Part shown: positions 4,510 through 18,255 of the stretch, one piece after another | Layout: each line of letters opens with the position of its first letter | Position numbering within the stretch: position 1 is the stretch's first letter | NCBI GenBank assembly: GCA_964457915.1 | Contig: CAYWFM010000001.1 | Span: 34,623-98,622 of the forward strand | Direction: 5' to 3' | Length of the DNA: 64,000 bases | Source: an uncultured Candidatus Saccharibacteria bacterium | Lineage (GTDB): Bacteria; Patescibacteriota; Minisyncoccia; Phycocordibacterales; SBAW01 | Made by a program: the position numbers and the translations under genes | The notes under the pieces: model-generated | Told to the model about the DNA's origin: nothing | Databases searched by the model: none | What the model saw: only the letters and a program-made list of their open reading frames with translations

Positions 4510-4606
4510 CTTTCCCTTCATGGCGTTAGCGACGGAGGGTGCCCACACTGTACCTTTATTTTCCTATTTTCTCAATATAGCTACCAAAGATGCTATTATT
4601 TTAACA

Positions 4607-5281
4607 ATGGACGAACAGATGCTCCAATACATACGTACACGCAGAAGTGTGCGCGTTCCAGACGACATGATTCGCCAAGAACTTATCGGTGTTGGCTGGA
4701 GCGCACCTATGGTTGATGAGGCGTTCGCATCTCTCACACCCGAGCCGCCCAAGCCCGCACCGCCACCCACCACTCCCGCGCAAACACCACCTCCAGCAAA
4801 CCCAGCCCCCTCTGAACCACCTGCTGCTATTCCTCTCTCACCGGCACCCACTACCCCACCCATTCAACCAGCACCAACCACAGAACAACCAACATCCGCC
4901 GCACAACCCGCACCGGGCGCAAAGCGCATCTTACTCGTTGAAGACGAGAAGGCACTCGCAACTGTTTTGAGTTTAAAGTTGAAAAATGCCGGCTACGACG
5001 TCACGGTGGTTTACAATGGAGATGACGCGCTGCGCATGCTCGGGAGTAGTTTTTTCGACCTCATGTTGGTTGATATTATGATGCCTAAGCGTGATGGGTT
5101 TAGCGTGCTAGAAGAATTAAAAAAGCAGAACAACCAAATCCCTGTTTTTGCCATGTCGAATCTCGGACAAGAAGAAGACATCGCGCGCGTCAAAAGTATG
5201 GGAGTAAAAGAGTACATCGTGAAAGCAGACGCCTCCCCCACTGACATACTCGCTCGAGTAAATTCATTTTTGAAACAATAA
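4607..5281 (+). CDS. Atypical response regulator: small N-terminal domain, Pro/Thr/Ala-rich linker, C-terminal CheY-like receiver
   Basis: C-terminal 120 aa = receiver domain (RILLVEDE...DLMLVDIMMPKRDGF...K). Residues ~50-105 are PEPPKPAPPPTTPAQTPPP... low complexity. The start is chosen at MDEQML (ATG 4607), preceded by a plausible -10 (TATTAT). Stop is 5 bp before pilB. Confidence 0.7.
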   Translation: MDEQMLQYIRTRRSVRVPDDMIRQELIGVGWSAPMVDEAFASLTPEPPKPAPPPTTPAQTPPPANPAPSEPPAAIPLSPAPTTPPIQPAPTTEQPTSAAQPAPGAKRILLVEDEKALATVLSLKLKNAGYDVTVVYNGDDALRMLGSSFFDLMLVDIMMPKRDGFSVLEELKKQNNQIPVFAMSNLGQEEDIARVKSMGVKEYIVKADASPTDILARVNSFLKQ

Positions 5282-8194: not shown

Positions 8195-9580
8195 CTAGTT
8201 ACTGCTCCAGCTTATTTGCTGGTACCCACTCGTTGAGAGGGGAAAGCTTGGCGGAGGACTGTACAAAAGATTTTTATCATACGTGTCGATGGTCGTCGCA
8301 TATCCAGAGGTCAGGGTGTTTTGACTATTAACCCATGACCAAGTCCACTGACCGTATGACATGATGGACCCAAAAATAGTGATGCTTGTCTTGGTATTGC
8401 CTGGGTAGTAAAAGAACTGAGTTGAACCATTTTGAGCGATGAGTGCCGCGTCAATTTCAAGCGCTGAGGGTGCGTTATAGGTGATAACAATATTATTTTG
8501 AGCCAACAAGCCGAGCACCGAGGTGCCATCTTTTGCTGCATACACAATATTTTTAGGGATATATATTGTTGGCGCAGCACTTGCCACATAGGGTAACTTT
8601 GCCGCTGCAACCATTACTCGCCCCTTTACCGTACCTTCAACCCATACGTTGTCTTCTATATATATGATTCCATTTGCTGGAATAGCTGGTGTAGATAGTA
8701 ATTGACGATTCTTGTAGTCTGTATACTCATTATGAGCGACACCATACACATCCCAACCGGTTGGATGTGAGGTGAGGTTTGTTACCTTATAGATACTAAC
8801 CGTACCGTTGCTATTAAACACGAGTGAATATCCCTGCGCGCTTGAGGGAGACAGGTAGATACCACCGCCCTGTGCTGTTGCTTTGAGCGAGGAGAGGTTG
8901 GCGGTCAGCGCTGAAAAATCTACCGCGGGCACAGGAAACTGCCAAAAGCTCTGTACTGCTGGTGATGCCCCTCCCCATACGCCGTTTTGCCACGACTCAC
9001 AGGGAGACCCTTGTGATCCTGGACACTTGTAGGTCGACTTTGCAGACATAATGGGTGCATTCCCCACCCCATCGAATCGAATACCATTGTTCGACTGAAG
9101 CTTTCCACTAACTGTTTCGCCAGCACCAATCCAGACAATGTCGTTACTTAAAAATGAAAATTGTGCGAGCGAGGGTATACCATATTGAGCCGTAATGGTG
9201 CGTTTGTTGTTTGGATTTGCACTGGTCCAACCTGTCGACTGTATGGTGACAATGGTCGACCCTACCACCGGTGGCGTGATCGTAAGACTGTACTGCCCTA
9301 CCACCTTTCCTGTGGTGAGATCAGTATACGAGTGCACATATGGTCCTGCGGTGGTGGTACCATCTCGATAATCAACCGGGAAGTGTGCCAGATGCCACTG
9401 GTAGTAGTTAATTCCCGCTTCTGCAATCTGAAAGGCTTGTTCATGATTAATACGCCCCGGCCCCATCTGTACCTCTTTGCGTACCACATCGATAAGCGGC
9501 ACGATCATGAGCGAACAGATAAACAACAGCATGAGCATGCCCACAAGCGCATCTCCCCGTATGTAGCGCGTCTGTTTCAT
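8195..9580 (-). CDS. Large pilus-associated protein with N-terminal membrane anchor, non-canonical prepilin-like N-terminus
   Basis: 461 aa. The N-terminus MKQTRYIRG|DALVGMLMLLF resembles a class-III leader but lacks Glu+5. The rest is Ser/Thr/Gly/Asn-rich beta-type sequence. Last gene of the pilin operon (1-nt overlap with the upstream gene). Confidence 0.5.
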   Translation of the reverse strand: MKQTRYIRGDALVGMLMLLFICSLMIVPLIDVVRKEVQMGPGRINHEQAFQIAEAGINYYQWHLAHFPVDYRDGTTTAGPYVHSYTDLTTGKVVGQYSLTITPPVVGSTIVTIQSTGWTSANPNNKRTITAQYGIPSLAQFSFLSNDIVWIGAGETVSGKLQSNNGIRFDGVGNAPIMSAKSTYKCPGSQGSPCESWQNGVWGGASPAVQSFWQFPVPAVDFSALTANLSSLKATAQGGGIYLSPSSAQGYSLVFNSNGTVSIYKVTNLTSHPTGWDVYGVAHNEYTDYKNRQLLSTPAIPANGIIYIEDNVWVEGTVKGRVMVAAAKLPYVASAAPTIYIPKNIVYAAKDGTSVLGLLAQNNIVITYNAPSALEIDAALIAQNGSTQFFYYPGNTKTSITIFGSIMSYGQWTWSWVNSQNTLTSGYATTIDTYDKNLLYSPPPSFPLSTSGYQQISWSSN

Positions 9581-10191
9581 TAGTTGCCGAGGTTAGTCTT
9601 AAGGTTGCGTAGTGTAGCTCCCGCAGTCATGGTAAACGTACTTGTTCCGGTGCGACTATCTTTCGTGAATACCGTTAGCGCCATTTGCACGTATGTCACC
9701 TGCGCAATCGGTACAGGCTGTGCAAGCGGTATGGATGTTGTGGCGCCGGTATAATTCCCATCATAGTACGTAAAAATAGTCGCCGTGCTCGAAGCAAGTG
9801 GCGTGAGCGATGAGATTTGTTCAGATGCAACAGGATACGTGGGTGGTGTGCCAATTGGTCGGGTTACCCCTTTATACAACACTCCACTTGAGGTGAAGTA
9901 CCTTACTTTTTGTATCGAACCATCATAACTTCCATACGGGGTATAAAAAATAATTGCCGTAGAACTTGCTAGAGTGAGTGGGTACGAACCATCTCCCGCG
10001 GTTGTTGCATCACGAATTTCGTTAAGAAAGGCGTTAGTCACTATACGGGTCTTATCAATAGTACCAATAGCAAGTGGCTGTTGGGCCGTTAGCGAAAAGA
10101 TTTTTGCTATAGTCCCCACTGCCGCAGCCATAATAAGAAGGCCAACCGCCAGAGCAATGAGAAATTCTACTAGAGTGACGCCGCGGTTCAT
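9580..10191 (-). CDS. Type IV (pseudo)pilin, prepilin-peptidase substrate
   Basis: 203 aa. MNRG|VTLVEFLIALAVGLLI = short basic leader, Gly-1, Glu+5, hydrophobic N-terminal helix. Confidence 0.7.
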   Translation of the reverse strand: MNRGVTLVEFLIALAVGLLIMAAAVGTIAKIFSLTAQQPLAIGTIDKTRIVTNAFLNEIRDATTAGDGSYPLTLASSTAIIFYTPYGSYDGSIQKVRYFTSSGVLYKGVTRPIGTPPTYPVASEQISSLTPLASSTATIFTYYDGNYTGATTSIPLAQPVPIAQVTYVQMALTVFTKDSRTGTSTFTMTAGATLRNLKTNLGN

Positions 10192-11957
10192 TGGCTTAAT
10201 TGTACGCGCAACGTTTGCTGCCCCGACAGGGTGATGTTGCTAATGGTCTGCGTTTGGTATCCAGGCATCTGCACCTCGACCTGATAGCCCCCCGTTTGGG
10301 TTATGCCAGCAAACATAGATTGCCCGGGAGTATAACAGCCAGACATGTAGTTAATGGTGACGTTACTCAATACCGGCGTGGTGGTGGTGCTGGTGGTGGT
10401 GAGTAGCGCTTTGTAGCGTAGGTATCGCTTATTGTTGAGCACGCTATGTATGGTGGTTCCGGGGACTGTGTAGTATGTGCTCGCTGTTCCATCAGGGCCT
10501 ACAAAATTCCATGTTGCATTATCAGTATTTGCCGCTAGTTGAAACATGACCGAGGTAGATGCGCTTTGTGATTGTGGGTTCCAGGTAAGTGTCGAGAATG
10601 TTGTTGAAGCGGTACCGGTATCAAACGTCGATGATATGAGTGACCCTGAAGACACGTACGCACCACTCACCTGCGCGAGACGCACTCCATTTGGTTGCGT
10701 TTGTGTATCGATAGTACCGCTGTCGCTTGCGTACTTATTTGCTGCCAAAAAATCTTCTTGCCCAGAGCCTCCGGTCCAGTCTTCCTGGTACAAGATACTC
10801 CCGGCGGTGAGCTTGCTTGCGCTGTATCCGATACCGCTGTTTCGAAGAGTCACCGTGGCACCCTCAACCGAGTTACCCGTCGATGCGTCAGTCACCACAA
10901 CCAGTAAACTATTACTGGTAGCGGGCCCGAGCATAAGCGTTGACTGTTGCGCTGTATTGGGAAGTAAATTTATCTGCTGCAGCGGCGAAGAACCATACAA
11001 CATATAACTCCCCTTTGGTGTTGGGGTGTACGTATCCCATTCGATGGGATTTATGACAATCTTCCCGACACCATCGGTGGTGAAAGTCTGATCAAATTTT
11101 AAAACACCGGGTGTCCCTATAAGTTTCGCACCCTTCAATTGGATATCAGCTCCTGAAACAGGGCGACAGGTCTGGTCAACCGCCTTGAGTGTCAGAGCAC
11201 TTAATTGATCAATAGAGAAGCTAACCGAGGTGCTTTGTCCCACCAAAACAGTAGCGTCAGGTTTTGTAGGATTTGGGTTAGGCCCCGTGCTCGGGTAGGT
11301 TTGGTCGGTGGAGTAACCACTGTTTAAGGCAACGATGTGGTAGCTGTTCGCGCTCGCTTTCACTCCAACCTCGGTCCACTTCCCCTGGGCATCCGTGGTA
11401 CGCACCACATCCAGTGCCGGCACAATGGTTGGGTTTGTAATATGTACCGTTGCGCCAGGGACGGGCTGTCCGATAGCGTTTATAACACTCAAGACTAAAG
11501 CACCGCCAGTCGCCATATTTTCAATACCTTTTGGTACAACCGTGGTTACGAATGATGACTGATGGTTGGTAGTAAGATTTTTTATATATAGTTTGACCTG
11601 CTTGTAGTCCGTATCGGTGGGACCGGTGCCATCAGCGGGGTCATCAACATAGGCAACCGTGTAGTAGATTTGGTATTTTGCGCCATTATAGGCAACCTCC
11701 TGTGGATTTACGAGATCTGGTAATGGCCCTGAAGGATTACCCGTCTTGGTGCCCACTTGGGCGTATGGCAAATTGCGGGCAATTTCAATGTAGGATTGCG
11801 ACAGTGCAGCAACCGCCGCCGTATCTCGATAGGTGCGAAGACCCCGGATCGCAGCGGTACCTAGTGCAATAATAGAAAAAACGAGAAGGGCAAAAATAGC
11901 GAGCGATATGAGTGTTTCAACAAGCGTAAACCCTCGCACCATTCTGCGCGCATGCAT
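10188..11957 (-). CDS. Giant type IV pilin-like protein (589 aa) with class-III signal peptide
   Basis: MHARRMVRG|FTLVETLISLAIFALLVF prepilin motif with Glu+5, followed by ~550 aa of Thr/Ser/Gly-rich, probably Ig/CarboxypepD-like beta domains. 4-bp overlap with the next pilin gene. Confidence 0.65.
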   Translation of the reverse strand: MHARRMVRGFTLVETLISLAIFALLVFSIIALGTAAIRGLRTYRDTAAVAALSQSYIEIARNLPYAQVGTKTGNPSGPLPDLVNPQEVAYNGAKYQIYYTVAYVDDPADGTGPTDTDYKQVKLYIKNLTTNHQSSFVTTVVPKGIENMATGGALVLSVINAIGQPVPGATVHITNPTIVPALDVVRTTDAQGKWTEVGVKASANSYHIVALNSGYSTDQTYPSTGPNPNPTKPDATVLVGQSTSVSFSIDQLSALTLKAVDQTCRPVSGADIQLKGAKLIGTPGVLKFDQTFTTDGVGKIVINPIEWDTYTPTPKGSYMLYGSSPLQQINLLPNTAQQSTLMLGPATSNSLLVVVTDASTGNSVEGATVTLRNSGIGYSASKLTAGSILYQEDWTGGSGQEDFLAANKYASDSGTIDTQTQPNGVRLAQVSGAYVSSGSLISSTFDTGTASTTFSTLTWNPQSQSASTSVMFQLAANTDNATWNFVGPDGTASTYYTVPGTTIHSVLNNKRYLRYKALLTTTSTTTTPVLSNVTINYMSGCYTPGQSMFAGITQTGGYQVEVQMPGYQTQTISNITLSGQQTLRVQLSQ

Positions 11958-11978: not shown

Positions 11979-13622
11979 TTACGAAGCGGTTTGTACCAAA
12001 AGCGGAATATCAACGAAAAACTGCGTCCCCTTCCCCACCCCTTCAGACGCCGCAGTGATAACGCCATGATGTGACTCCACAAACGTTTTCACAATAAAGA
12101 GCCCTAGGCCCGAACCATTGTTGTTTACCTCTTGTGCATTGTCGCCACGGGTAAATTTTGAGAACATACGCTTGAGCGTTTCTTCACTCATCCCGATACC
12201 GGTGTCGCGTATTTCTACGTGAGCCATTGAGGTGCCTGGCATTTTTCGTAACATGATCGAAATATTGCCCTTGGGGGTATATTTTGTTGCGTTGTCGATA
12301 ATGTTGCTGAAAACTTGTTTTAGTTTTCCACCATCGCCCCAAACCATAACCTTCTCTTCAGGGACGGACACTTCAATTTGCAATCCTTTCTTTTCAACAC
12401 CGGGGCGCAACTCGCTACCGACGCTGGTGATAAGCGCCGCCAAATCAACAGGGCCAAACTGGTACTGCATCCTCCCCTGCTCAATGCGAGATACATCAAG
12501 GTAATCGTTGATCATCACTGCCATACCGGAACTTTCATCAATGAGCGTCTTCATGGCGGCTTTCAGGTTGTCCGGTAGCGGCCCATAGGTGCCATCCATA
12601 ATGGAGTCGATACTCCAGCGAATAGCGGTAAGAGGTGTTCGCAGTTGGTGTGACGCAAAAGAAAGGAACTCGCTTTTCTCTTTGTCGATTTCGCGCAACC
12701 GCGCATTGGACACCTCCAGCTCCCGCTCTTGCTTTTCAATAAGCTCGCGCTGCTTCACCTCTCGATTAACGCTACGTACCAGGAAATAGCCAAACATGAG
12801 CATAAAAACTAAGACAAACCCATCCAATATTGCAAAATTTATATCTGGCTCTGCAAATAATTTTCCAAAAAGGACAATATCGATGGTCGCAATCAAAGAT
12901 TGGGTGAGGAGAATTTTTATATCAAATAAATGATATTGCGTAATAGCGTACGCAGTTATTCCTAAGAAACCAAGCACATATAAAGGGGTAAATTGTAAAA
13001 AAAATGTGGTATTGAAAAAGAGCAATGGAATTAAAATGGTCAAAATGATAAGTCCCAAAAGAAAAATAATACCAAGAAGCATGGTGCCCAACTGTCGCCT
13101 CGTTTCACTCTCTGCACGAAAATATGACGTCGTTAAAAAATAAAGAGAGAGGATTGCAAAAATCGTAGAAATAACAACAAATGGCAACAGCCCGACTCCT
13201 GCCTGAGGCTCACTGAGTCCTTCTATTTGTTGGACTCCAACAAAAGCATACGGTGAGAGATTGAGGCCCATCATAAGCAGTGTAGCCGCTATAGAGATAT
13301 ACAAACCTTTTTTCGGAAGGGTTATGGTTTGAGAAGGCATAATATAGCCCAAGAGAAATAGGGAAAAACTCATTGGCGCAGCAAAAAAGATTCCCAAACG
13401 ATGTAGCGAAAGAGACGCGCTATTCAGCTCTGGTATACGCACTAAAAAAGTATCCAGCATCCATAGCGTGGTAAAAAAACTTAGGACACAGAAGATTCTA
13501 TTGGTCGCACTATTGGGATTATTTCTGTACACCAAAAATCCCATAATAGTAGAACCGACCAATGCCAACACAAAAGCAACGAGAGAAAGAGGTGAATCGT
13601 ATGGAAGAGTAATATGAATCAT
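11979..13622 (-). CDS. Membrane-bound sensor histidine kinase (multi-TM N-terminus, HisKA + HATPase_c)
   Basis: H-box SHQLRTPLTAIRWS, N/G1/G2 boxes (DNATKYT, DTGIGM, GSGLGL). ~8 predicted TM helices in the first 300 aa. The start is set at MIHITL, giving an ATGA overlap with the upstream nitroreductase-fold gene. Confidence 0.85.
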   Translation of the reverse strand: MIHITLPYDSPLSLVAFVLALVGSTIMGFLVYRNNPNSATNRIFCVLSFFTTLWMLDTFLVRIPELNSASLSLHRLGIFFAAPMSFSLFLLGYIMPSQTITLPKKGLYISIAATLLMMGLNLSPYAFVGVQQIEGLSEPQAGVGLLPFVVISTIFAILSLYFLTTSYFRAESETRRQLGTMLLGIIFLLGLIILTILIPLLFFNTTFFLQFTPLYVLGFLGITAYAITQYHLFDIKILLTQSLIATIDIVLFGKLFAEPDINFAILDGFVLVFMLMFGYFLVRSVNREVKQRELIEKQERELEVSNARLREIDKEKSEFLSFASHQLRTPLTAIRWSIDSIMDGTYGPLPDNLKAAMKTLIDESSGMAVMINDYLDVSRIEQGRMQYQFGPVDLAALITSVGSELRPGVEKKGLQIEVSVPEEKVMVWGDGGKLKQVFSNIIDNATKYTPKGNISIMLRKMPGTSMAHVEIRDTGIGMSEETLKRMFSKFTRGDNAQEVNNNGSGLGLFIVKTFVESHHGVITAASEGVGKGTQFFVDIPLLVQTAS

Positions 13623-14683
13623 ATGTGGACTTTTCGAACGTGTGGATGCTGTTTGTGTGCATGTGCAGATGGAGCTGGCCCATATCCCACACGACAAATC
13701 ATTGAGATACGGCGATTCGGTGGCACCATTGCCAATCTCTCTAAACGTTCTTCAGTACTCTTTATAAGCAGGGCGTGAGCCTCAGAAAAAGCTTGTGCAT
13801 CACCTCCTCGTACTCTCTGTCCAAGATACGGCATTGCTCCTAATGGGTGCACGGAAAGACCGTGAGTCATCGCGGTAAGCCATACCCTCTCCAGGGCTCG
13901 GCCTGTATTAAAAAATGATACATTGCTTTGTTCGGAAATAGTGAACACCAGTATAGCGGAACAAGCTGCATAGGTTATCTGAGATTGTTTTGAAATGAAA
14001 CGAGAAAACCCAAAACGATTCAAAAACGAAACCACCTTCCAAGAAGGAAGTACGTACCGAAACATAAGCGCAACAGGAGGGGGAAACTCCATTGTTTTAA
14101 TGTATAGACCTGGATCTTGCTGCTCTTCTTTTACATTCCAGCGTATCTTGGTGAACAAAAAATCATGCAGTGTTTTATTTTCCATGAGCAGGCGTTCATT
14201 AACACTTATGCATGCAGCCATCTCTTTAATGATTTTAGGATCTTCAACACACGTCATCAAAACATCTTCTGGAAGAATTGTGAGTTGAGTTATGGCTCGG
14301 AGAGATTCTGGCGTAAGGGGTGTCCTTTTATAGAGCTTGCGATTGGTTGTTCTCTGTTTGATTGCTTGAGTTATTTCATTTGAACTCTTTTCAGCCGGAC
14401 TAAATATAAGATGAGCTACGCAATCCTTTTCTTTTTGAAACGCTAGCACCTCCACCGAGTATCCTTCTTGTTTAGCAAGTAGTGCTATATTTTCAACGAG
14501 TGCGCCGTGCCCAAGATACGATCCTCTCTCTTTATAATTATAAAGGGTGTCATCTGCGCCAGTTTTGTTATAAATCATTAAACCATCCTCAAGAATCTCA
14601 AATTCCCATGGTTGTGCGTTATCACCGGAAGGAGCGTTCACCGCTATCGGTAAAATTTTTTCAATAATTTCTTTTACGATCAC
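13619..14683 (-). CDS. Nitroreductase-superfamily protein, double-length (354 aa; SagB/McbC-like or Acg-like tandem nitroreductase fold)
   Basis: N-terminal APSGDNAQPWEFEI matches the PSxxNxQPW signature of the FMN nitroreductase fold, and an RxxxRK(L/F) motif lies further in. The length is about twice a canonical nitroreductase. Confidence 0.55.
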   Translation of the reverse strand: MIVKEIIEKILPIAVNAPSGDNAQPWEFEILEDGLMIYNKTGADDTLYNYKERGSYLGHGALVENIALLAKQEGYSVEVLAFQKEKDCVAHLIFSPAEKSSNEITQAIKQRTTNRKLYKRTPLTPESLRAITQLTILPEDVLMTCVEDPKIIKEMAACISVNERLLMENKTLHDFLFTKIRWNVKEEQQDPGLYIKTMEFPPPVALMFRYVLPSWKVVSFLNRFGFSRFISKQSQITYAACSAILVFTISEQSNVSFFNTGRALERVWLTAMTHGLSVHPLGAMPYLGQRVRGGDAQAFSEAHALLIKSTEERLERLAMVPPNRRISMICRVGYGPAPSAHAHKQHPHVRKVHI

Positions 14684-14685
14684 GC

Positions 14686-16122
14686 TTGTATTATACTATC
14701 AACAATCCCTCCATGAATCAGTTTTCCCGGGCAGAGCAAGAAGCCATCGAACTTTTTAGACACGCGGCCGCAGGAGTCCCTGCGTACAAAGATTTTTTAC
14801 GCAAACACAAGATAAACCCTGACAAAATACTAACGTTTGAAGACTTTAAAAAAATACCCCCAACAAACAAGCCTGATTACATTAGCGCTTATTCTTTACA
14901 AGAACTAAGCTGGGACGGAACTTTGGCCCACTCACCCTACATATCATCAAGTTCTGGATCTACAGGAATACCCTTTTATTGGCCTCGGGGTAATTATCAA
15001 AATAAAATTGTTGGTAAAATTTTTCAAAACATATTTGAAAAAATATTTTACACCAAAGAAGGTTCGACTCTTTTTGTGAACCTTTTCGCGCTCGGCACTT
15101 GGATTGCCGGGCTCGAATTTTATAATGGGGCAAAATACGTTGCCGACACGGGAAATGCTATAAACATAGTTACGCCTGGTATAGAAAAAAAGGTCGCTCT
15201 TGACGCTATTGTTCGTCTGGGACCCCTTTACGATCGCATCGTCTTAGCTGGCTATCCCCCGTTTGTTAAAGATGTTATCGACTCTGGGTTTACCGTTGGA
15301 ATTGATTGGTCAAAATATAATGTATACCTCCTTACCGGAGGAGAAGCGTTCAGTGAACTCTGGAGAAATCATGTACATAGAAAATTGGGGGCACCAGAAG
15401 CTTCACAAAAAATAATTAATATCTATGGTATGGCAGAAACCGGAGTGGTCGGACACGAAACACCTCTCACCATTTTACTTAGAAAAAATTTACAAACTCT
15501 AGGAACCATATATCAACCATCGACGCCTGGAACTGGCGCACCAGCACTATATGCGTACAACCCTCTGGTGCGTTTTTTTGAAGTAGGAGATGATCAATCT
15601 CTCTTGCTTACGTCTCGAGCAGGTTTGCCTCTTATCAGATACAACACTCGCGATCAGGGAGGTCTCATATCAAGTAAAGAGATCCGTGCAATGGCCACAG
15701 TTGTACCAGCAACACGAGAGTGCCTGTCTGCGTGGCGCACACCTGTTGTGTATTTACATGGGCGCAAAGATTTGTCCCTTTCTTTTTACGCACTCAATGT
15801 ATATATAGAAAACATCAAACACTGCTTTGAGAGCTACGCTGAAGCAAAAAGTTTTTCAGGCCTGTTTACTATGCGAGTAGCAAATTCTAGAAATTTTGAC
15901 CAACAATTTCATATTGTTGCCGAATTAGCACTTGAAACAAAACAGCACGACACAAAACAACTAGTTTTACACATATTAAAAACTCTTCCCACGATAAACA
16001 GCGAGTATGGAAAACTTTTGCAGTCCCTTGGGAAACGCGCACACCCTAAAGTCAGCTTAGTACCATACGGTAAATTAGATACGATACCGGGGAAAAAACA
16101 TCGGTGGGTTCGCAAAGGGTAA
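14686..16122 (+). CDS. PaaK/coenzyme F390 synthetase-like adenylate-forming enzyme
   Basis: 478 aa. SSSGSTGIPFYWPR at ~90 matches the (S/T)SGTTGxP AMP-binding P-loop position of the phenylacetate-CoA ligase family. Overall length and architecture fit PaaK/CapK-like. Confidence 0.6.
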   Translation: MYYTINNPSMNQFSRAEQEAIELFRHAAAGVPAYKDFLRKHKINPDKILTFEDFKKIPPTNKPDYISAYSLQELSWDGTLAHSPYISSSSGSTGIPFYWPRGNYQNKIVGKIFQNIFEKIFYTKEGSTLFVNLFALGTWIAGLEFYNGAKYVADTGNAINIVTPGIEKKVALDAIVRLGPLYDRIVLAGYPPFVKDVIDSGFTVGIDWSKYNVYLLTGGEAFSELWRNHVHRKLGAPEASQKIINIYGMAETGVVGHETPLTILLRKNLQTLGTIYQPSTPGTGAPALYAYNPLVRFFEVGDDQSLLLTSRAGLPLIRYNTRDQGGLISSKEIRAMATVVPATRECLSAWRTPVVYLHGRKDLSLSFYALNVYIENIKHCFESYAEAKSFSGLFTMRVANSRNFDQQFHIVAELALETKQHDTKQLVLHILKTLPTINSEYGKLLQSLGKRAHPKVSLVPYGKLDTIPGKKHRWVRKG

Positions 16123-17157
16123 CTACTTATCGAGTCTCTCTGATGGCTGCAGTGCCAGGTCACAACCCATCACATAACGACCCGAGGGCAGCGATGACCC
16201 CAGAGCAAGCGAACGAACTGCGTACGCCACAGCAACACCAGCGAGTGATGCGGCCGTCCCAAGTTGGGCTATCCCAGAAAGGGTTTTACCCACCTCTTGT
16301 ACTGACTTTTCTTGTCGCTCAGTGAATAAAGAAGGATCTATAATTTGATTTGCAAGAGAAACAAATCGCTCGCGAGACATGTTTTTGAGGTTAGATGGAA
16401 CTCGTTTAATACGACCATGAAAAATAGGTTGTTTTGTATCGCAGTCAAAGCGTTCAACATCAAGAATTACACTATCGCCATTATCGGTAGCCATGAGAAC
16501 AGGAATCCCTGCCTTTTTACAAGCAAATCGTACGGCAAACTTCATCGCAATATCATCCATCTCATCAACCAACACATCGAGATTATTGATGAACTCCGGC
16601 AATGATGCAATTTCAACACCCCTATCCCATGATTCTATTTTTAGGAACGGGTCTATCTCCCAAGCAGCTCGCGCCGCTATAGTAACTTTAGGCAACCCAA
16701 CATCAAGCACTGTCCCGCGAATTCGATTAAGGTTAGTAATTTCCAAAATATCTGGGTCGGCAATTCGTAACATTTTTGGACCACCTGTCGAAACTAACGA
16801 TTGCAGTACTGCAGAACCAACAGAAAGCCCCAATATGCCCACCTTACTTGCACGATATACTAGCTGTTCATCGGGCAAGATGAGGTTTCGATTACGGGCT
16901 GTACGTAAACGAAAATAAATCGACTCCTCAGGTAGACAAACTGCCACATTCCTCCACGGGAAATACACCCACACACAAGGACGCTCTCGTACTTGCTTTC
17001 GAACATACTTCTCCAATACAGCCGCGTCGTGTCTCCCTTTTGCTATATGTGGGTGTTCAACAAAATACAATTCAGTGAAAGCACTTTTCCGCGTATCAAT
17101 TTTTTTACAGGTACGCGGAAGTTTTTGAGAGGCGGTAAAAAAAATTGGTTTTTGCAC
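16123..17157 (-). CDS. E1-like (ThiF/MoeB/MccB family) adenylyltransferase with ~100-aa N-terminal extra domain
   Basis: Rossmann GxGxxG (ILGLSVGSAVLQSL), ITNLNRI (ThiF xxNLNRQ motif) and D-x-x-D (VLVDEMDD) are present. No CxxC zinc motif seen. The N-terminal 100 aa is unrelated to the E1 fold. Confidence 0.75.
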   Translation of the reverse strand: MQKPIFFTASQKLPRTCKKIDTRKSAFTELYFVEHPHIAKGRHDAAVLEKYVRKQVRERPCVWVYFPWRNVAVCLPEESIYFRLRTARNRNLILPDEQLVYRASKVGILGLSVGSAVLQSLVSTGGPKMLRIADPDILEITNLNRIRGTVLDVGLPKVTIAARAAWEIDPFLKIESWDRGVEIASLPEFINNLDVLVDEMDDIAMKFAVRFACKKAGIPVLMATDNGDSVILDVERFDCDTKQPIFHGRIKRVPSNLKNMSRERFVSLANQIIDPSLFTERQEKSVQEVGKTLSGIAQLGTAASLAGVAVAYAVRSLALGSSLPSGRYVMGCDLALQPSERLDK

Positions 17158-17162
17158 GTTAC

Positions 17163-17558
17163 TTATCCCCTTCCAAGTGCTTCGCGGATCTTGTCTACTA
17201 CAATGACCGGCGTCGTGTCTGCCTTAACCAAGTAGAACACCGGTTCGTATACCTCGATCGCTTTAATTATCTGGTTACTGTCGGGGGTAAGGTTGGTGAG
17301 CATGATGACGGGCACCTGCGCACCATAGGGAATGTTTTTGCGCAGCTGCTGTAGCATAGAGAGCCCGTCGGTCCCTGGCATCATGATATCGAGCACAATA
17401 ACTGCCGGGTGTTTGCGCAACGCAAACTCAAGCCCTTCAGCTCCATCGCCTGCTTCGATGACCTCATAGCCGGCATCTCGCATTTTTTGAGTGAGGAGGC
17501 CACGCAATGTTTTTTCGTCTTCGACGATGAGTATGGTTTGTCCCTGTGTCTGTGCCAT
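17163..17558 (-). CDS. Stand-alone CheY-like response regulator receiver (no output domain)
   Basis: 131 aa. ILIVEDE...VLDIMMPGTDG...K conserved receiver residues. 5 bp upstream of the E1-like gene in the same orientation. Confidence 0.85.
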   Translation of the reverse strand: MAQTQGQTILIVEDEKTLRGLLTQKMRDAGYEVIEAGDGAEGLEFALRKHPAVIVLDIMMPGTDGLSMLQQLRKNIPYGAQVPVIMLTNLTPDSNQIIKAIEVYEPVFYLVKADTTPVIVVDKIREALGRG

Positions 17559-17617: not shown

Positions 17618-17692
17618 TGGTGCCCCCGCGAGGAATCGAACCTCGATAGCCGGCTTAGAAGTCCGGAGTTCTATCCATTAAACTACAGGGGC
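17618..17692 (-). tRNA. tRNA-Arg (anticodon TCT)
   Basis: Minus-strand cloverleaf: acceptor GCCCCTG/CGGGGGC, anticodon loop CTTCTAA, T-loop GGTTCGATTCC, CCA encoded. Confidence 0.8.
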
Positions 17693-17730: not shown

Positions 17731-18255
17731 ATGACTAGACTTCTGAAACAAAAATACTGGCATGAACTTTTTGAGGCCGGCGTCGCACTCAAAGCATTTA
17801 ACAGTGTGTGGGAGACCGCTGGTGGAGTCCTGCTGTTAACCGGGCTCCATTCGTGGATATCTCGAGGGTTTGTGTTTATTACGAGTAGTACCTTTTTTGG
17901 TGACAGGCACGAGTTTATCTTTCGTCTCCTAGATAGCCAGCTCCACCATCTTAACGTCGTATCAACACGCACCTTCGTGGGAGCATATCTCCTCTTTCAT
18001 GGCATCATGAATGCCTTTTTAGCATACAATCTCTACCGCAATCGTCTCTGGGCCTACCCTACCATGATCGCGTTTTCTTCTATCTTTTTTGTCTATCAAG
18101 TATTTCGGCTCTTCCACACCCACTCACTCATGCTCCTTGCGGTGAGTGTGTTTGATATTGTGTTTATTCTTCTCACGTGGCACGAGTGGCGCCATCAAAC
18201 ACGCAAACGTCAGCGCGCAGTAGAGCCCACCGGTGCTGAAGATTCAAACAGATAG
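17731..18255 (+). CDS. Hypothetical integral membrane protein (4 TM)
   Basis: Hydrophobic helices (GGVLLLTGLHSW, FVGAYLLFHGIM, AYPTMIAFSSIFFVY). No recognisable motif. Confidence 0.45.
   Translation: MTRLLKQKYWHELFEAGVALKAFNSVWETAGGVLLLTGLHSWISRGFVFITSSTFFGDRHEFIFRLLDSQLHHLNVVSTRTFVGAYLLFHGIMNAFLAYNLYRNRLWAYPTMIAFSSIFFVYQVFRLFHTHSLMLLAVSVFDIVFILLTWHEWRHQTRKRQRAVEPTGAEDSNR

Follow-up and report, generated by a model that had tools for sequence, protein, structure and literature searches.

The oxazolone synthetase type has been described as OxzB (2021), TyzB/TyzC (2023) and TrzS (2025). TrzS, which is Rv1355c, fuses a ThiF-type ATP-dependent cyclase to a flavin desaturase and converts N-acyl-tryptophan to an oxazolone (JBC 2025; PMC12856293), the ThiF domain cyclising the N-acyl-tryptophan with ATP and the flavin-dependent oxidase (FDO) domain then desaturating it. 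The same cyclisation and desaturation are performed by separate proteins in the TyzB/TyzC pair (PMC10404671). N-acylation in all characterised oxazolone pathways is the task of a CoA- or ACP-dependent N-acyltransferase (OxzA, TyzA, TrzA), and published oxazolone work has pointed out that N-acyl oxazolones resemble acyl-homoserine lactones. An oxazolone ring is also formed, by ATP-dependent cyclodehydration, by TcdA, which differs in acting on tRNA (ct6A dehydratase).

The 64,000-nucleotide window analysed here is from a Patescibacterium and contains the following block of five genes.

11979-13622, minus strand: 7TM sensor histidine kinase (HK); its ATG overlaps the nitroreductase stop codon (ATGA)
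13619-14683, minus strand: double-length nitroreductase (NTR, the FDO), 354 aa
14686-16122, plus strand: PaaK-like ligase, convergent with the ThiF-like gene at zero spacing
16123-17157, minus strand: ThiF-like enzyme, 344 aa, separated from the RR gene by a 5-bp gap
17163-17558, minus strand: receiver-only response regulator (RR), 131 aa, Pfam Response_reg

We judge it reasonably likely, at a probability of about 0.6, that this block is a conserved Patescibacteria (CPR) module in which a small-molecule pathway of three enzymes is coupled to a two-component system of its own. By sequence comparison the block appears to be a split version of the ThiF-cyclase/flavin-desaturase oxazolone synthetase, accompanied by a PaaK-like ligase and a 7TM kinase. 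New here is an oxazolone-type pathway that shares an operon with a two-component system and in which a ligase would take the place of the acyltransferase.

The ORF listing of the window reproduces all five genes and every junction, so that the positions and spacings of the original prediction stand with minor corrections, and profile matches agree with its domain calls (an E1/ThiF-like enzyme that has an N-terminal extension, an adenylate-forming PaaK-like enzyme, a tandem nitroreductase fold, a multi-TM HK and a receiver-only RR). The ligase and NTR genes do lie head-to-head, but the 2-bp gap assigned to them holds only for a TTG start at 14686 (478 aa). An identical protein in the database, P0001 (469 aa), starts at ATG 14713, leaving a 29-bp gap, which agrees with the 29-56 bp seen in relatives. 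Beyond the HK gene, a 21-bp gap precedes pilin-like genes. Of the supposed three prepilins, only those at 10188-11957 and 9580-10191 have an N-methylation motif that scores above the Pfam cut-off; the third, a 461-aa gene, has none.

The cyclase-like and flavoenzyme proteins

The five genes had been said to correspond to no system that could be named, yet the ThiF-like and NTR proteins match, respectively, the N- and C-halves of the NCBIfam model for Rv1355c/TrzS (NF005901, 'Rv1355c family'). The ThiF-like protein scores 282 bits (E 7e-84) against the N-half, and the next-best ThiF models, PRK08223 and PRK14851, which we tentatively take to be the TyzB/OxzB-type families, reach only about 64 bits. 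With the ThiF part of an Rv1355c-family fusion from a Rhodococcus plasmid it is colinear at 39% identity. Among solved structures and sequences, the closest include TcdA (by sequence profile) and AclA (PDB 9egb), the TcdA NCBIfam score being only 25 bits. As the Pfam ThiF match spans residues 88-224 only, the protein has an N-terminal extension, which from about residue 42 (BLAST: from 63) is common to TrzS-type proteins. The adenylation site is intact, with the motifs G107-x2-G110-L-S-x-G114, D134-x-D136...N142-L-N-R145, K157 and D198-E-M-D201 all kept, and conservation of these motifs, the DEMD aspartates among them, extends across 44 homologues. The protein is a predicted ATP-dependent cyclase-type enzyme, the counterpart of the TrzS/Rv1355c N-half.

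The NTR protein aligns with NF005901 positions 374-713 (172 bits, E 2e-50) and with the Acg family NF047509 (126 bits). Its flavin motifs APSxxNxQPW and RxxxR (A17-P-S19, N22, Q24-P-W26, R111, R115) are invariant or nearly so in 23 sequences, 22 from CPR and the Rhodococcus Rv1355c-family protein. The SagB-type profile TIGR03605 gave no match at E<=0.1. The NF005901 and NF047509 matches identify a putative single-chain tandem nitroreductase-fold FDO of the Acg/TyzC/TrzS-C type, and we propose that it acts as a C-alpha/C-beta desaturase. Two observations count against the main reading: the likeness to the C-half of the Rhodococcus protein is weak (23% identity over 279 aa, colinear), and the scores of the two halves add up to about 454 bits, below the NF005901 cut-off of 476 bits.

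The closest profile match is TrzAS (Rv1356c-Rv1355c), an N-acyl tryptazolone pathway present in Mycobacterium tuberculosis, in M. smegmatis and in Rhodococcus (Kleetz et al. 2025, PMC12856293). Besides the extension before the Rossmann core, the two systems share aromatic amino-acid chemistry, putatively so for the window, and signalling genes alongside, which are c-di-GMP turnover genes in TrzAS and HK/RR in the window. In contrast to TrzAS, the two domains are encoded in the window by separate same-strand genes with an opposite-strand gene between them, a PaaK-like ANL ligase is present instead of a TrzA-type N-acyltransferase, the 7TM HK is a fixed operon member in the Patescibacteria module, and the host is not a mycolic-acid actinomycete. 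The N-acyl tyrazolone pathways TyzACB (Rv2336-2338c; PMC10404671) and OxzAB (Pseudoalteromonas rubra; de Rond et al., bioRxiv 10.1101/2020.06.11.147165) follow the same logic of ThiF cyclase and NTR-superfamily desaturase. In Tyz these are likewise separate proteins, and TyzC is a monomeric, Acg-like single-chain NTR of about 370 aa, comparable to the 354-aa window protein. Both pathways differ from the window in belonging to another ThiF subcluster than TrzS, in using acyl-CoA-dependent N-acyl amino acid synthases (TyzA, OxzA) and in having no linked HK/RR.

The PaaK-like ligase

The PaaK-like protein has the ANL/PaaK fold with intact motifs. PDB phmmer matches are PaaK and BT_0428, and an AF2 model (pLDDT 88) has BT_0428, PaaK1/2 and then ClxA as top Foldseek matches. 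The residues S80-S-G82...G85, Y238-G239, R309-Y310...D314 and K462 are invariant in 35 homologues. We propose that this ligase supplies the acyl-amino-acid substrate. It occupies the slot of the canonical third partner, the N-acyltransferase; neither an N-acyltransferase nor a YcaO was found in the locus. No acyltransferase family is conserved in the compared neighbourhoods, and a weak search, phmmer with just two single-sequence queries, a putative TrzA-like protein and a GNAT, gave no match in the 64-kb window or the CPR loci. A precedent for such a step, by analogy only, is OlsH, an adenylate-forming enzyme that, needing neither CoA nor ACP, uses ATP to produce N-acyl ornithine from free fatty acid (PMC12493201), thereby standing in for the acyltransferases OlsB/OlsF. 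OlsH differs in belonging to the ornithine-lipid pathway and to the GH3-like ANL branch (PF03321), to which the PaaK-like protein has no match in a Pfam search.

Against the main reading, the TIGR02155 PaaK match is remote (E 2e-11, 43 bits against an equivalog cut-off of 646). Homologues outside CPR (Nostocales, actinomycetes, methanotrophs; 35-37% identity) stand alone with no ThiF, NTR or HK gene nearby, indicating that the ligase is not intrinsically an oxazolone-pathway enzyme. Together with the CoA ligases PaaK and BT_0428 as best sequence and fold matches, and with an unrelated 326-aa protein that replaces the ligase in one module (L091), which also counts against the main reading, this would fit an ordinary aryl-acid CoA ligase of aromatic acid salvage or catabolism, placed beside the ThiF and FDO genes for historical or regulatory reasons, with any N-acylation left to an unlinked acyltransferase. 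We consider this unlikely, as adjacency to the ThiF-like gene through so many rearrangements (see below) is hard to explain without a shared function and no acyltransferase was detected near any module. Biosynthesis of CoA and of fatty acids is, moreover, typically lacking from CPR genomes. The exact reaction, whether that of a CoA ligase or of an amide-forming ligase, we can only infer.

Conservation of the module in Patescibacteria

The window was compared with 31 other Patescibacteria loci, counts being taken over loci with enough sequence. The gene set recurs across these loci in many orders, with the NTR or ligase gene missing in a few, and in MAGs of Saccharibacteria, Paceibacterota, Yanofsky-, Terry-, Nealson- and Lloydbacteria. 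In every one of the 28 loci that reach far enough, the PaaK-like gene adjoins the ThiF-like gene; an HK is present in 25 of 26 and an NTR in 22 of 25, the modules without NTR (L007, L019, L087) counting against the main reading. Ligase, ThiF-like enzyme, NTR and 7TM HK remain linked through at least seven gene orders, and reverse look-up from three ThiF homologues recovered NTR and 7TM HK in 3/3 and the PaaK-like gene in 2/3. This clustering is far beyond chance. The genes are co-conserved rather than scattered in the compared Patescibacteria, bearing out the view that they form one functional unit. Some modules contain accessory genes: in five loci one for a class I/II aminotransferase, in L032 one for a prephenate dehydratase and in L017 one for a ScyB-like Trp/Phe dehydrogenase. 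These suggest aromatic amino or keto acids as substrates.

The original prediction had drawn an analogy with RiPP enzymes (McbB/SagC/MccB with SagB/McbC), in which the E1-like enzyme would adenylate the C-terminus of a peptide or protein, the local candidates being pilins, the flavoenzyme would oxidise the product and the PaaK-like ligase would add a group. The N-terminal extension of the ThiF-like protein, the pilin genes next to the HK in the window and a pilM adjoining the module in one other locus (L004) are compatible with this. However, the ThiF-like sequence is far nearer TrzS, which has a small-molecule substrate and shares the extension, than any other ThiF family, and the embedded accessory genes suggest amino or keto acids in free form. 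By our reading of its secondary structure, the extension has the order beta-beta-alpha-alpha-beta-beta-alpha, unlike the canonical RRE beta3-alpha3, and the module proteins match neither PqqD/RRE nor SagB-type profiles at E<=0.1. The locus, as had been observed, has no YcaO and no room for a precursor-peptide gene, and no small ORF is conserved in 29 loci. Lacking YcaO, SagB-type profile, RRE and conserved small ORF, the RiPP reading is unsupported and in our view very improbable. Nor does the block always adjoin pilins across CPR: the supposed fusion with a type IV pilin operon is peculiar to this genome, and a homologue of its 589-aa pilin was found in one other locus only, 6 kb from the module. 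The module probably yields a small molecule that derives from an aromatic amino acid and is tied to signalling, rather than a modified pilin or peptide, and the evidence favours the alternative of a small signalling molecule that had also been raised.

Putative pathway and signalling

In the pathway we propose, the PaaK-like ligase would adenylate a carboxylic acid that is probably of the aryl or acyl type, and either couple it directly to an aromatic amino acid through the amino group or pass on an activated acyl donor, giving an N-acyl amino acid by either route. The ThiF-like enzyme would adenylate the carboxylate of this N-acyl amino acid, the amide oxygen closing a 5(4H)-oxazolone ring, and the tandem-nitroreductase flavoenzyme would desaturate the C-alpha/C-beta bond using O2. 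The identity of this product is putative. Oxazolones are easily opened by water and alcohols (PMC12856293), and a reactive azlactone could, instead of being the end product, be an acyl donor for covalent modification of a target that is a lipid or lies on the cell surface or in the host. Or the pathway could end with a different ThiF-activated product. The HK/RR would then merely regulate expression or activity on host contact. The three modules without a desaturase, expected to yield a more labile saturated ring, favour this, as does the RR, which without a DNA-binding domain must act on a protein target. But the oxazolone accumulates as product in every characterised system and no candidate acceptor or transferase gene is conserved in the compared neighbourhoods, and we regard such a role as quite improbable.

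In the oxazolone signalling pathway that we prefer, the 7TM HK, presumably co-transcribed with the enzymes and, in the window, translationally coupled to the FDO, would together with the receiver-only RR link oxazolone chemistry to signalling. The HK may sense the membrane-soluble product in an autoinducer-type loop, or may respond to an outside cue by switching the pathway or a protein target; both the ligand of the kinase and the target of the regulator are putative. CqsA/CqsS, LuxM/LuxN and AgrBD/AgrC are quorum-sensing pairs of synthase and membrane receptor-kinase. They resemble the module in encoding small hydrophobic-molecule biosynthesis with a multi-helix membrane HK, but their enzymes and sensor domains are not homologous to those of the window, whose RR has no output domain and whose ligand sensing by HisKA_7TM is only putative.

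The RR matches Pfam Response_reg (E 2e-19), and its acidic pocket (E13/D14), D57, T88 and K112 are present by eye. In 13 of 29 Patescibacteria loci a receiver-only RR of about 120-180 aa is encoded, at varying positions, no more than about 4 kb from the module. A two-component pair split by the enzymes is one arrangement only: the HK is fixed at the 3' end of the enzyme genes and the RR is mobile or locally absent. The HK consists of an N-terminal HisKA_7TM multi-helix membrane domain, HisKA and HATPase_c (Pfam). Its gene ends the run wherever it is on the same strand as the neighbouring enzyme gene, often overlapping or abutting it, and in the loci of arrangement B the HK and NTR genes are divergent. 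Positions in the sensor domain are conserved (at least 80%) among 23 module-linked HKs that represent two architectures.

Gene organisation in the window

The module comprises five genes, followed by a run of pilin-like genes, located in the window from a six-frame ORF list as follows.

17163-17558, minus strand: receiver-only response regulator (RR), 131 aa
16123-17157, minus strand: ThiF-like (E1-like) protein, 344 aa
14686-16122, plus strand: PaaK-like ligase, 478 aa
13619-14683, minus strand: double-length nitroreductase (NTR), 354 aa
11979-13622, minus strand: seven-transmembrane (7TM) histidine kinase (HK), 547 aa
10188-11957, 9580-10191 and 8195-9580: pilin-like genes, 21 bp beyond the HK gene

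The genes and their junctions lie where the original prediction had placed them. The RR and ThiF-like genes are 5 bp apart, the ThiF-like and PaaK-like genes converge with zero spacing at their ends, and the NTR stop codon is overlapped by the HK ATG at 13622 (ATGA). The proposed 2-bp spacing between the head-to-head NTR and PaaK-like genes holds if the ligase starts at TTG 14686, but the identical database protein has 469 aa and starts at ATG 14713, so the gap may instead be 29 bp; it is 29-56 bp in relatives with the same gene order. The divergent starts are thus 2-29 bp apart (14683-14713), close enough that either both promoters lie inside coding sequence or NTR and HK are read through from RR and ThiF, antisense to the ligase gene. 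Across 11.8-17.8 kb, a promoter and terminator scan returned as many matches as expected from shuffled sequence.

The domain assignments are borne out by Pfam (Response_reg, ThiF and Nitroreductase, with HisKA_7TM, HisKA and HATPase_c in the kinase), which gives the HK and RR the domains of a two-component system, and their translations contain an H-box (SHQLRTPL) and D57, respectively. Their linkage suggests a cognate pair. At a distance of 7 kb from the module there is another response regulator gene, a longer one (4520-5281, plus strand, about 253 aa). Of the three genes described as prepilins, two encode an N-methylation motif and the third does not. The 589-aa pilin-like protein (10188-11957, minus strand) resembles a minor pilin with an adhesin tip: its N-methylation motif is followed by CarboxypepD_reg-type β-sandwich domains.

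Conservation and genomic setting in Patescibacteria

Relatives were drawn from the contexts of six PaaK-like homologues (40-54% identity), a scan of one genome per species (80 loci), and the contexts of three ThiF-like homologues absent from the ligase match list. The five module proteins were mapped by tblastn and iterative HMM search, and gene counts cover 29 Patescibacteria (CPR) loci, window included.

Occurrence of module genes in the Patescibacteria loci
PaaK-like gene adjoining ThiF-like gene: 28/28 loci extending far enough
7TM HK: 25/26 loci
NTR: 22/25 loci (missing in L007, L019 and L087, and at a distance of 8.5 kb in L021)
Receiver-only RR no more than about 4 kb away: 13 loci

The three look-ups that started from ThiF each contained an NTR and a HisKA_7TM HK, and two of the three a PaaK-like gene. 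Carriers are labelled Saccharibacteria/Saccharimonadales, Paceibacterota, Yanofsky-, Terry-, Nealson- and Lloydbacteria. At least seven gene orders occur, including same-strand NTR-ThiF-PaaK-HK, ThiF-PaaK-NTR-HK and PaaK-ThiF-HK-RR. Wherever the HK gene is on the strand of the neighbouring enzyme gene it closes the run, often overlapping or abutting that gene; in the order that begins with RR and an aminotransferase, it is divergent from the NTR gene. ORF clustering of the 29 loci revealed no other broadly conserved family, whether acyltransferase, transporter, YcaO protein or small peptide. One Saccharibacteria locus (L012:11408-11989, plus strand) has a 193-aa protein with a LigA-type BRCT-like C-terminus encoded between the PaaK-like and ThiF-like genes.

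The G+C fraction of 12700-17200 in the window is about 0.39-0.46, 6-10 points lower than that of its flanks (0.48-0.57). Directly upstream of the RR gene is a tRNA-Arg(TCT) gene (17618-17692, minus strand), beyond which lies a gene for a DUF2127 membrane protein (17731-18255, plus strand). A recent tRNA-linked genomic island was considered and rejected, given the flank synteny with the related locus L004, the dnaJ/aspS site used in other lineages and the absence of an integrase among the ORFs listed around the module. The window and L004 have in common a flank containing RuvX and a tRNA-binding-protein gene, and this synteny argues against recent acquisition despite the low G+C of the module. 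The synteny with L004 and the nearest relatives also suggest that the source organism is a Patescibacterium. In the equivalent position of L004, between the tRNA-binding-protein gene and ThiF, are pilM and three small genes. In five other loci (L010, L012, L091, L092 and L093) the module follows grpE-dnaK-dnaJ and usually precedes an aspartyl/lysyl-tRNA synthetase-type gene, a common syntenic site in several lineages that suggests old, vertical inheritance.

The supposed fusion to a type IV pilin operon does not extend to the relatives. The only homologue of the 589-aa pilin-like protein in the fetched loci (L020:13876-15627) is 6 kb from its module, and pilM adjoins the module in L004 alone; elsewhere the flanks are housekeeping genes (dnaK/dnaJ, aspS, secA, polA).

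A split cyclase-oxidase pair and its PaaK-like ligase

In the 722-position NCBIfam model NF005901, the ThiF-like protein aligns to positions 46-341 with 282 bits (E 7e-84), next-best ThiF models scoring about 64 bits, and the NTR to positions 374-713 with 172 bits (E 2e-50). This model describes Rv1355c (TrzS), a fusion of ThiF cyclase and flavin desaturase; since the two proteins cover its separate halves, they represent a known fusion protein divided between two genes. The equivalog cut-off is 476 bits, above either separate score and above their sum of about 454, and the pair is, at the level of sequence, a close relative of the Rv1355c family in split form and no equivalog. Annotated members of that family were obtained by tblastn of plasmids, and a Rhodococcus protein among them is 39% identical to the ThiF-like protein over residues 63-327 (E 7e-61), while its C-terminal half is 23% identical to the NTR over 279 residues (E 3e-16). 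For the NTR there is a further match to Acg, the family of single-chain tandem nitroreductases (E 2e-36). The NTR gene is one gene away from that of the cyclase in the window, and directly adjoins it in many relatives.

Sequence motifs identify the ThiF-like protein as a cyclase of the TrzS/TyzB/OxzB cluster with a predicted intact adenylation site, its signatures (GxxGLSxG, DxD...NLNR, K157 and the DEMD aspartates) being invariant or nearly so in 44 homologues. The comparison with TrzS was made at motif level, the published residues of the M. smegmatis enzyme being D217, R540 and Q651. The AlphaFold model (pLDDT 94) is a confident ThiF fold, for which AclA (PDB 9egb) is the best structural match; AclA and TcdA, an oxazolone-forming cyclodehydratase, are the nearest solved sequences to the family profile. 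In the NTR the motifs APSxxNxQPW and RxxxR are kept in 22 CPR sequences and in the Rhodococcus protein, and flavin binding is predicted.

These assignments bear on the earlier analogy to the ribosomal peptide-modifying systems McbBCD and SagBCD. The Pfam ThiF match spans residues 88-224 only, which leaves an N-terminal extension, but from about residue 42 (63 by BLAST) this extension aligns with TrzS-type proteins, which are small-molecule enzymes. Searches at E<=0.1 gave no match to the SagB-type TIGR03605 or to a PqqD/RRE profile. YcaO is absent, as had been predicted, both from the locus and from the families conserved over the 29 loci, where there is likewise no conserved small ORF; nor does the locus contain a precursor gene. 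The N-terminal peptide clamp and short precursor ending in Asn that characterise an MccB-type peptide adenylyltransferase were not found. The alternative that the original prediction had offered, a small signalling molecule, is preferable.

In the known pathway, the TrzS ThiF domain uses ATP to convert N-acyl-tryptophan to an oxazolone (Kleetz et al., PMC12856293). Desaturation of this product with O2, for which cyclisation must come first, takes place in the flavin-dependent oxidase (FDO) domain; the N-acyl amino acid itself is made from acyl-CoA by the partner N-acyltransferase TrzA (PMC12856293). Oxazolones do not survive acid or methanol (PMC12856293). TyzACB follows the same logic with ThiF and FDO as separate proteins (PMC10404671), as does OxzAB of Pseudoalteromonas, with a fusion. 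The module has in common with these three systems the ThiF cyclase and NTR-superfamily oxidase, whereas their adjoining N-acyl amino acid synthase is replaced by the PaaK-like ligase. Neither the window nor the fetched CPR loci gave a phmmer match to either of two queries, a putative TrzA-like protein and a GNAT, and the ORF clusters of the 29 loci contain no conserved acyltransferase family.

The fold and motifs of the ligase place it in the PaaK-like branch of the ANL superfamily. The P-loop SSG..G, YG, RY...D and the C-terminal K are invariant in 35 homologues, sequence matches in the PDB are to PaaK and BT_0428, and a Foldseek search with the model (pLDDT 88) ranks BT_0428 and PaaK1/2 first, followed by the aryl-acid adenylating ClxA. 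It is not a member of the PaaK phenylacetate-CoA ligases proper, as the score against TIGR02155 is 43 bits (E 2e-11; equivalog cut-off 646) and there are no paa genes nearby. Nor does its setting fit a capsule CapK orthologue, a possibility raised earlier, as the neighbourhoods of the 31 relatives contain no capsule genes but instead ThiF, NTR and HK. Full-length homologues at 35-37% identity are widespread in Nostocales (L023-L088, e.g. L037:9884-11434) with further examples in some actinomycetes and methanotrophs; they stand alone, with no ThiF, NTR or HK nearby. As a clue to function these proved uninformative, the neighbours at a Calothrix locus being unrelated housekeeping genes (FolB, RsmB).

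A precedent for exchanging an acyltransferase for a ligase, as proposed for the module, is OlsH: this GH3-like enzyme, also adenylate-forming, needs neither CoA nor ACP to produce N-acyl ornithine and takes the place of OlsB/OlsF (PMC12493201). In L091, a locus whose ThiF-like protein is assigned by NCBI to Giovannonibacteria, the usual PaaK-like slot between ThiF and NTR is occupied by an unrelated 326-aa protein (L091:8020-9000, plus strand). Searches of Pfam, NCBIfam and PDB sequences gave no match to it; it is unlike the putative TrzA-like protein and has no copy in the other loci. The acyltransferase TyzA is of similar size (322 aa) and has no Pfam domain, so the 326-aa protein may be a non-orthologous displacement of the ligase.

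Candidate product and signalling role

Several modules embed further enzymes. A class I/II (aspartate/aromatic-type) aminotransferase is present in those of five loci, a prephenate dehydratase lies between RR and ligase in L032, and a ScyB-like tryptophan/phenylalanine dehydrogenase (266 bits) between NTR and ligase in L017. These enzymes interconvert aromatic amino acids and arylpyruvates, which fits both a PaaK-type aryl-acid ligase and the known oxazolones, derived from Tyr, Phe and Trp, and they are indirect evidence that the module product may be an aromatic-amino-acid-derived N-acyl 5(4H)-oxazolone. In the pathway we propose, the PaaK-like ligase would provide the N-acyl amino acid, by direct ATP-dependent amide formation or by supplying an activated acyl group, and so stand in for the acyl-CoA-dependent N-acyltransferase; closure of the oxazolone ring would fall to the ThiF-like enzyme, and the subsequent desaturation to the FDO. 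The module suggests new enzymology as well, with a PaaK-like ligase that would perform N-acylation without CoA. L007, L019 and L087 have PaaK-like, ThiF-like and HK genes without a nitroreductase gene, and their pathways would be expected to stop at the saturated ring or to yield another product.

The ThiF and FDO pair is already known; the Patescibacteria form, with a split pair, a PaaK-like ligase in place of the acyltransferase, a co-operonic 7TM HK and a linked receiver-only regulator, is a new variant. We found it described nowhere in the searchable literature: oxazolone is absent from the top-ranked papers combining that term with CPR names, and the major Patescibacteria papers checked mention none of the module genes. 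The TrzS paper makes no mention of ligases, kinases or Candidatus taxa (PMC12856293). Oxazolone synthetases were discovered in 2021-2025, and the role of their products is called a major unresolved question by the same authors, who speculate on signalling (PMC12856293). A variant genetically hard-wired to a sensor kinase and receiver ties this chemistry to signal transduction in a testable system. Biosynthesis is very limited in Patescibacteria, and a small-molecule pathway that has survived many rearrangements in several classes, often at the dnaK-dnaJ/module/aspS site, likely matters for their episymbiotic lifestyle.

Two features give the module the look of a signalling device: the HK is transcribed together with the enzymes, and the regulator lacks an output domain for DNA binding. 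One possibility is an autoinducer-like loop in which the kinase detects the pathway product; another is that the receiver, once phosphorylated, acts on the enzymes or on some other machine. The fullest form of the autoinducer-like reading, to which we give roughly one chance in five, is that the module works as a complete chemical signalling circuit of its own, old and widely distributed among Patescibacteria. Aromatic acids or amino acids from the host would be turned by the enzyme trio into an oxazolone-type molecule able to cross membranes, the 7TM kinase would be the receptor for that molecule, and the RR would pass the signal to a protein machine, type IV pili and host attachment being candidates. 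Such a circuit would be the first autoinducer-like system in these ultrasmall episymbionts and would give oxazolones a physiological function. A homologue search with the HK 7TM domain alone, an insensitive query, returned six matches, and the sensor domains of 23 module-linked HKs have conserved positions across architectures of about 540 and 730 aa.
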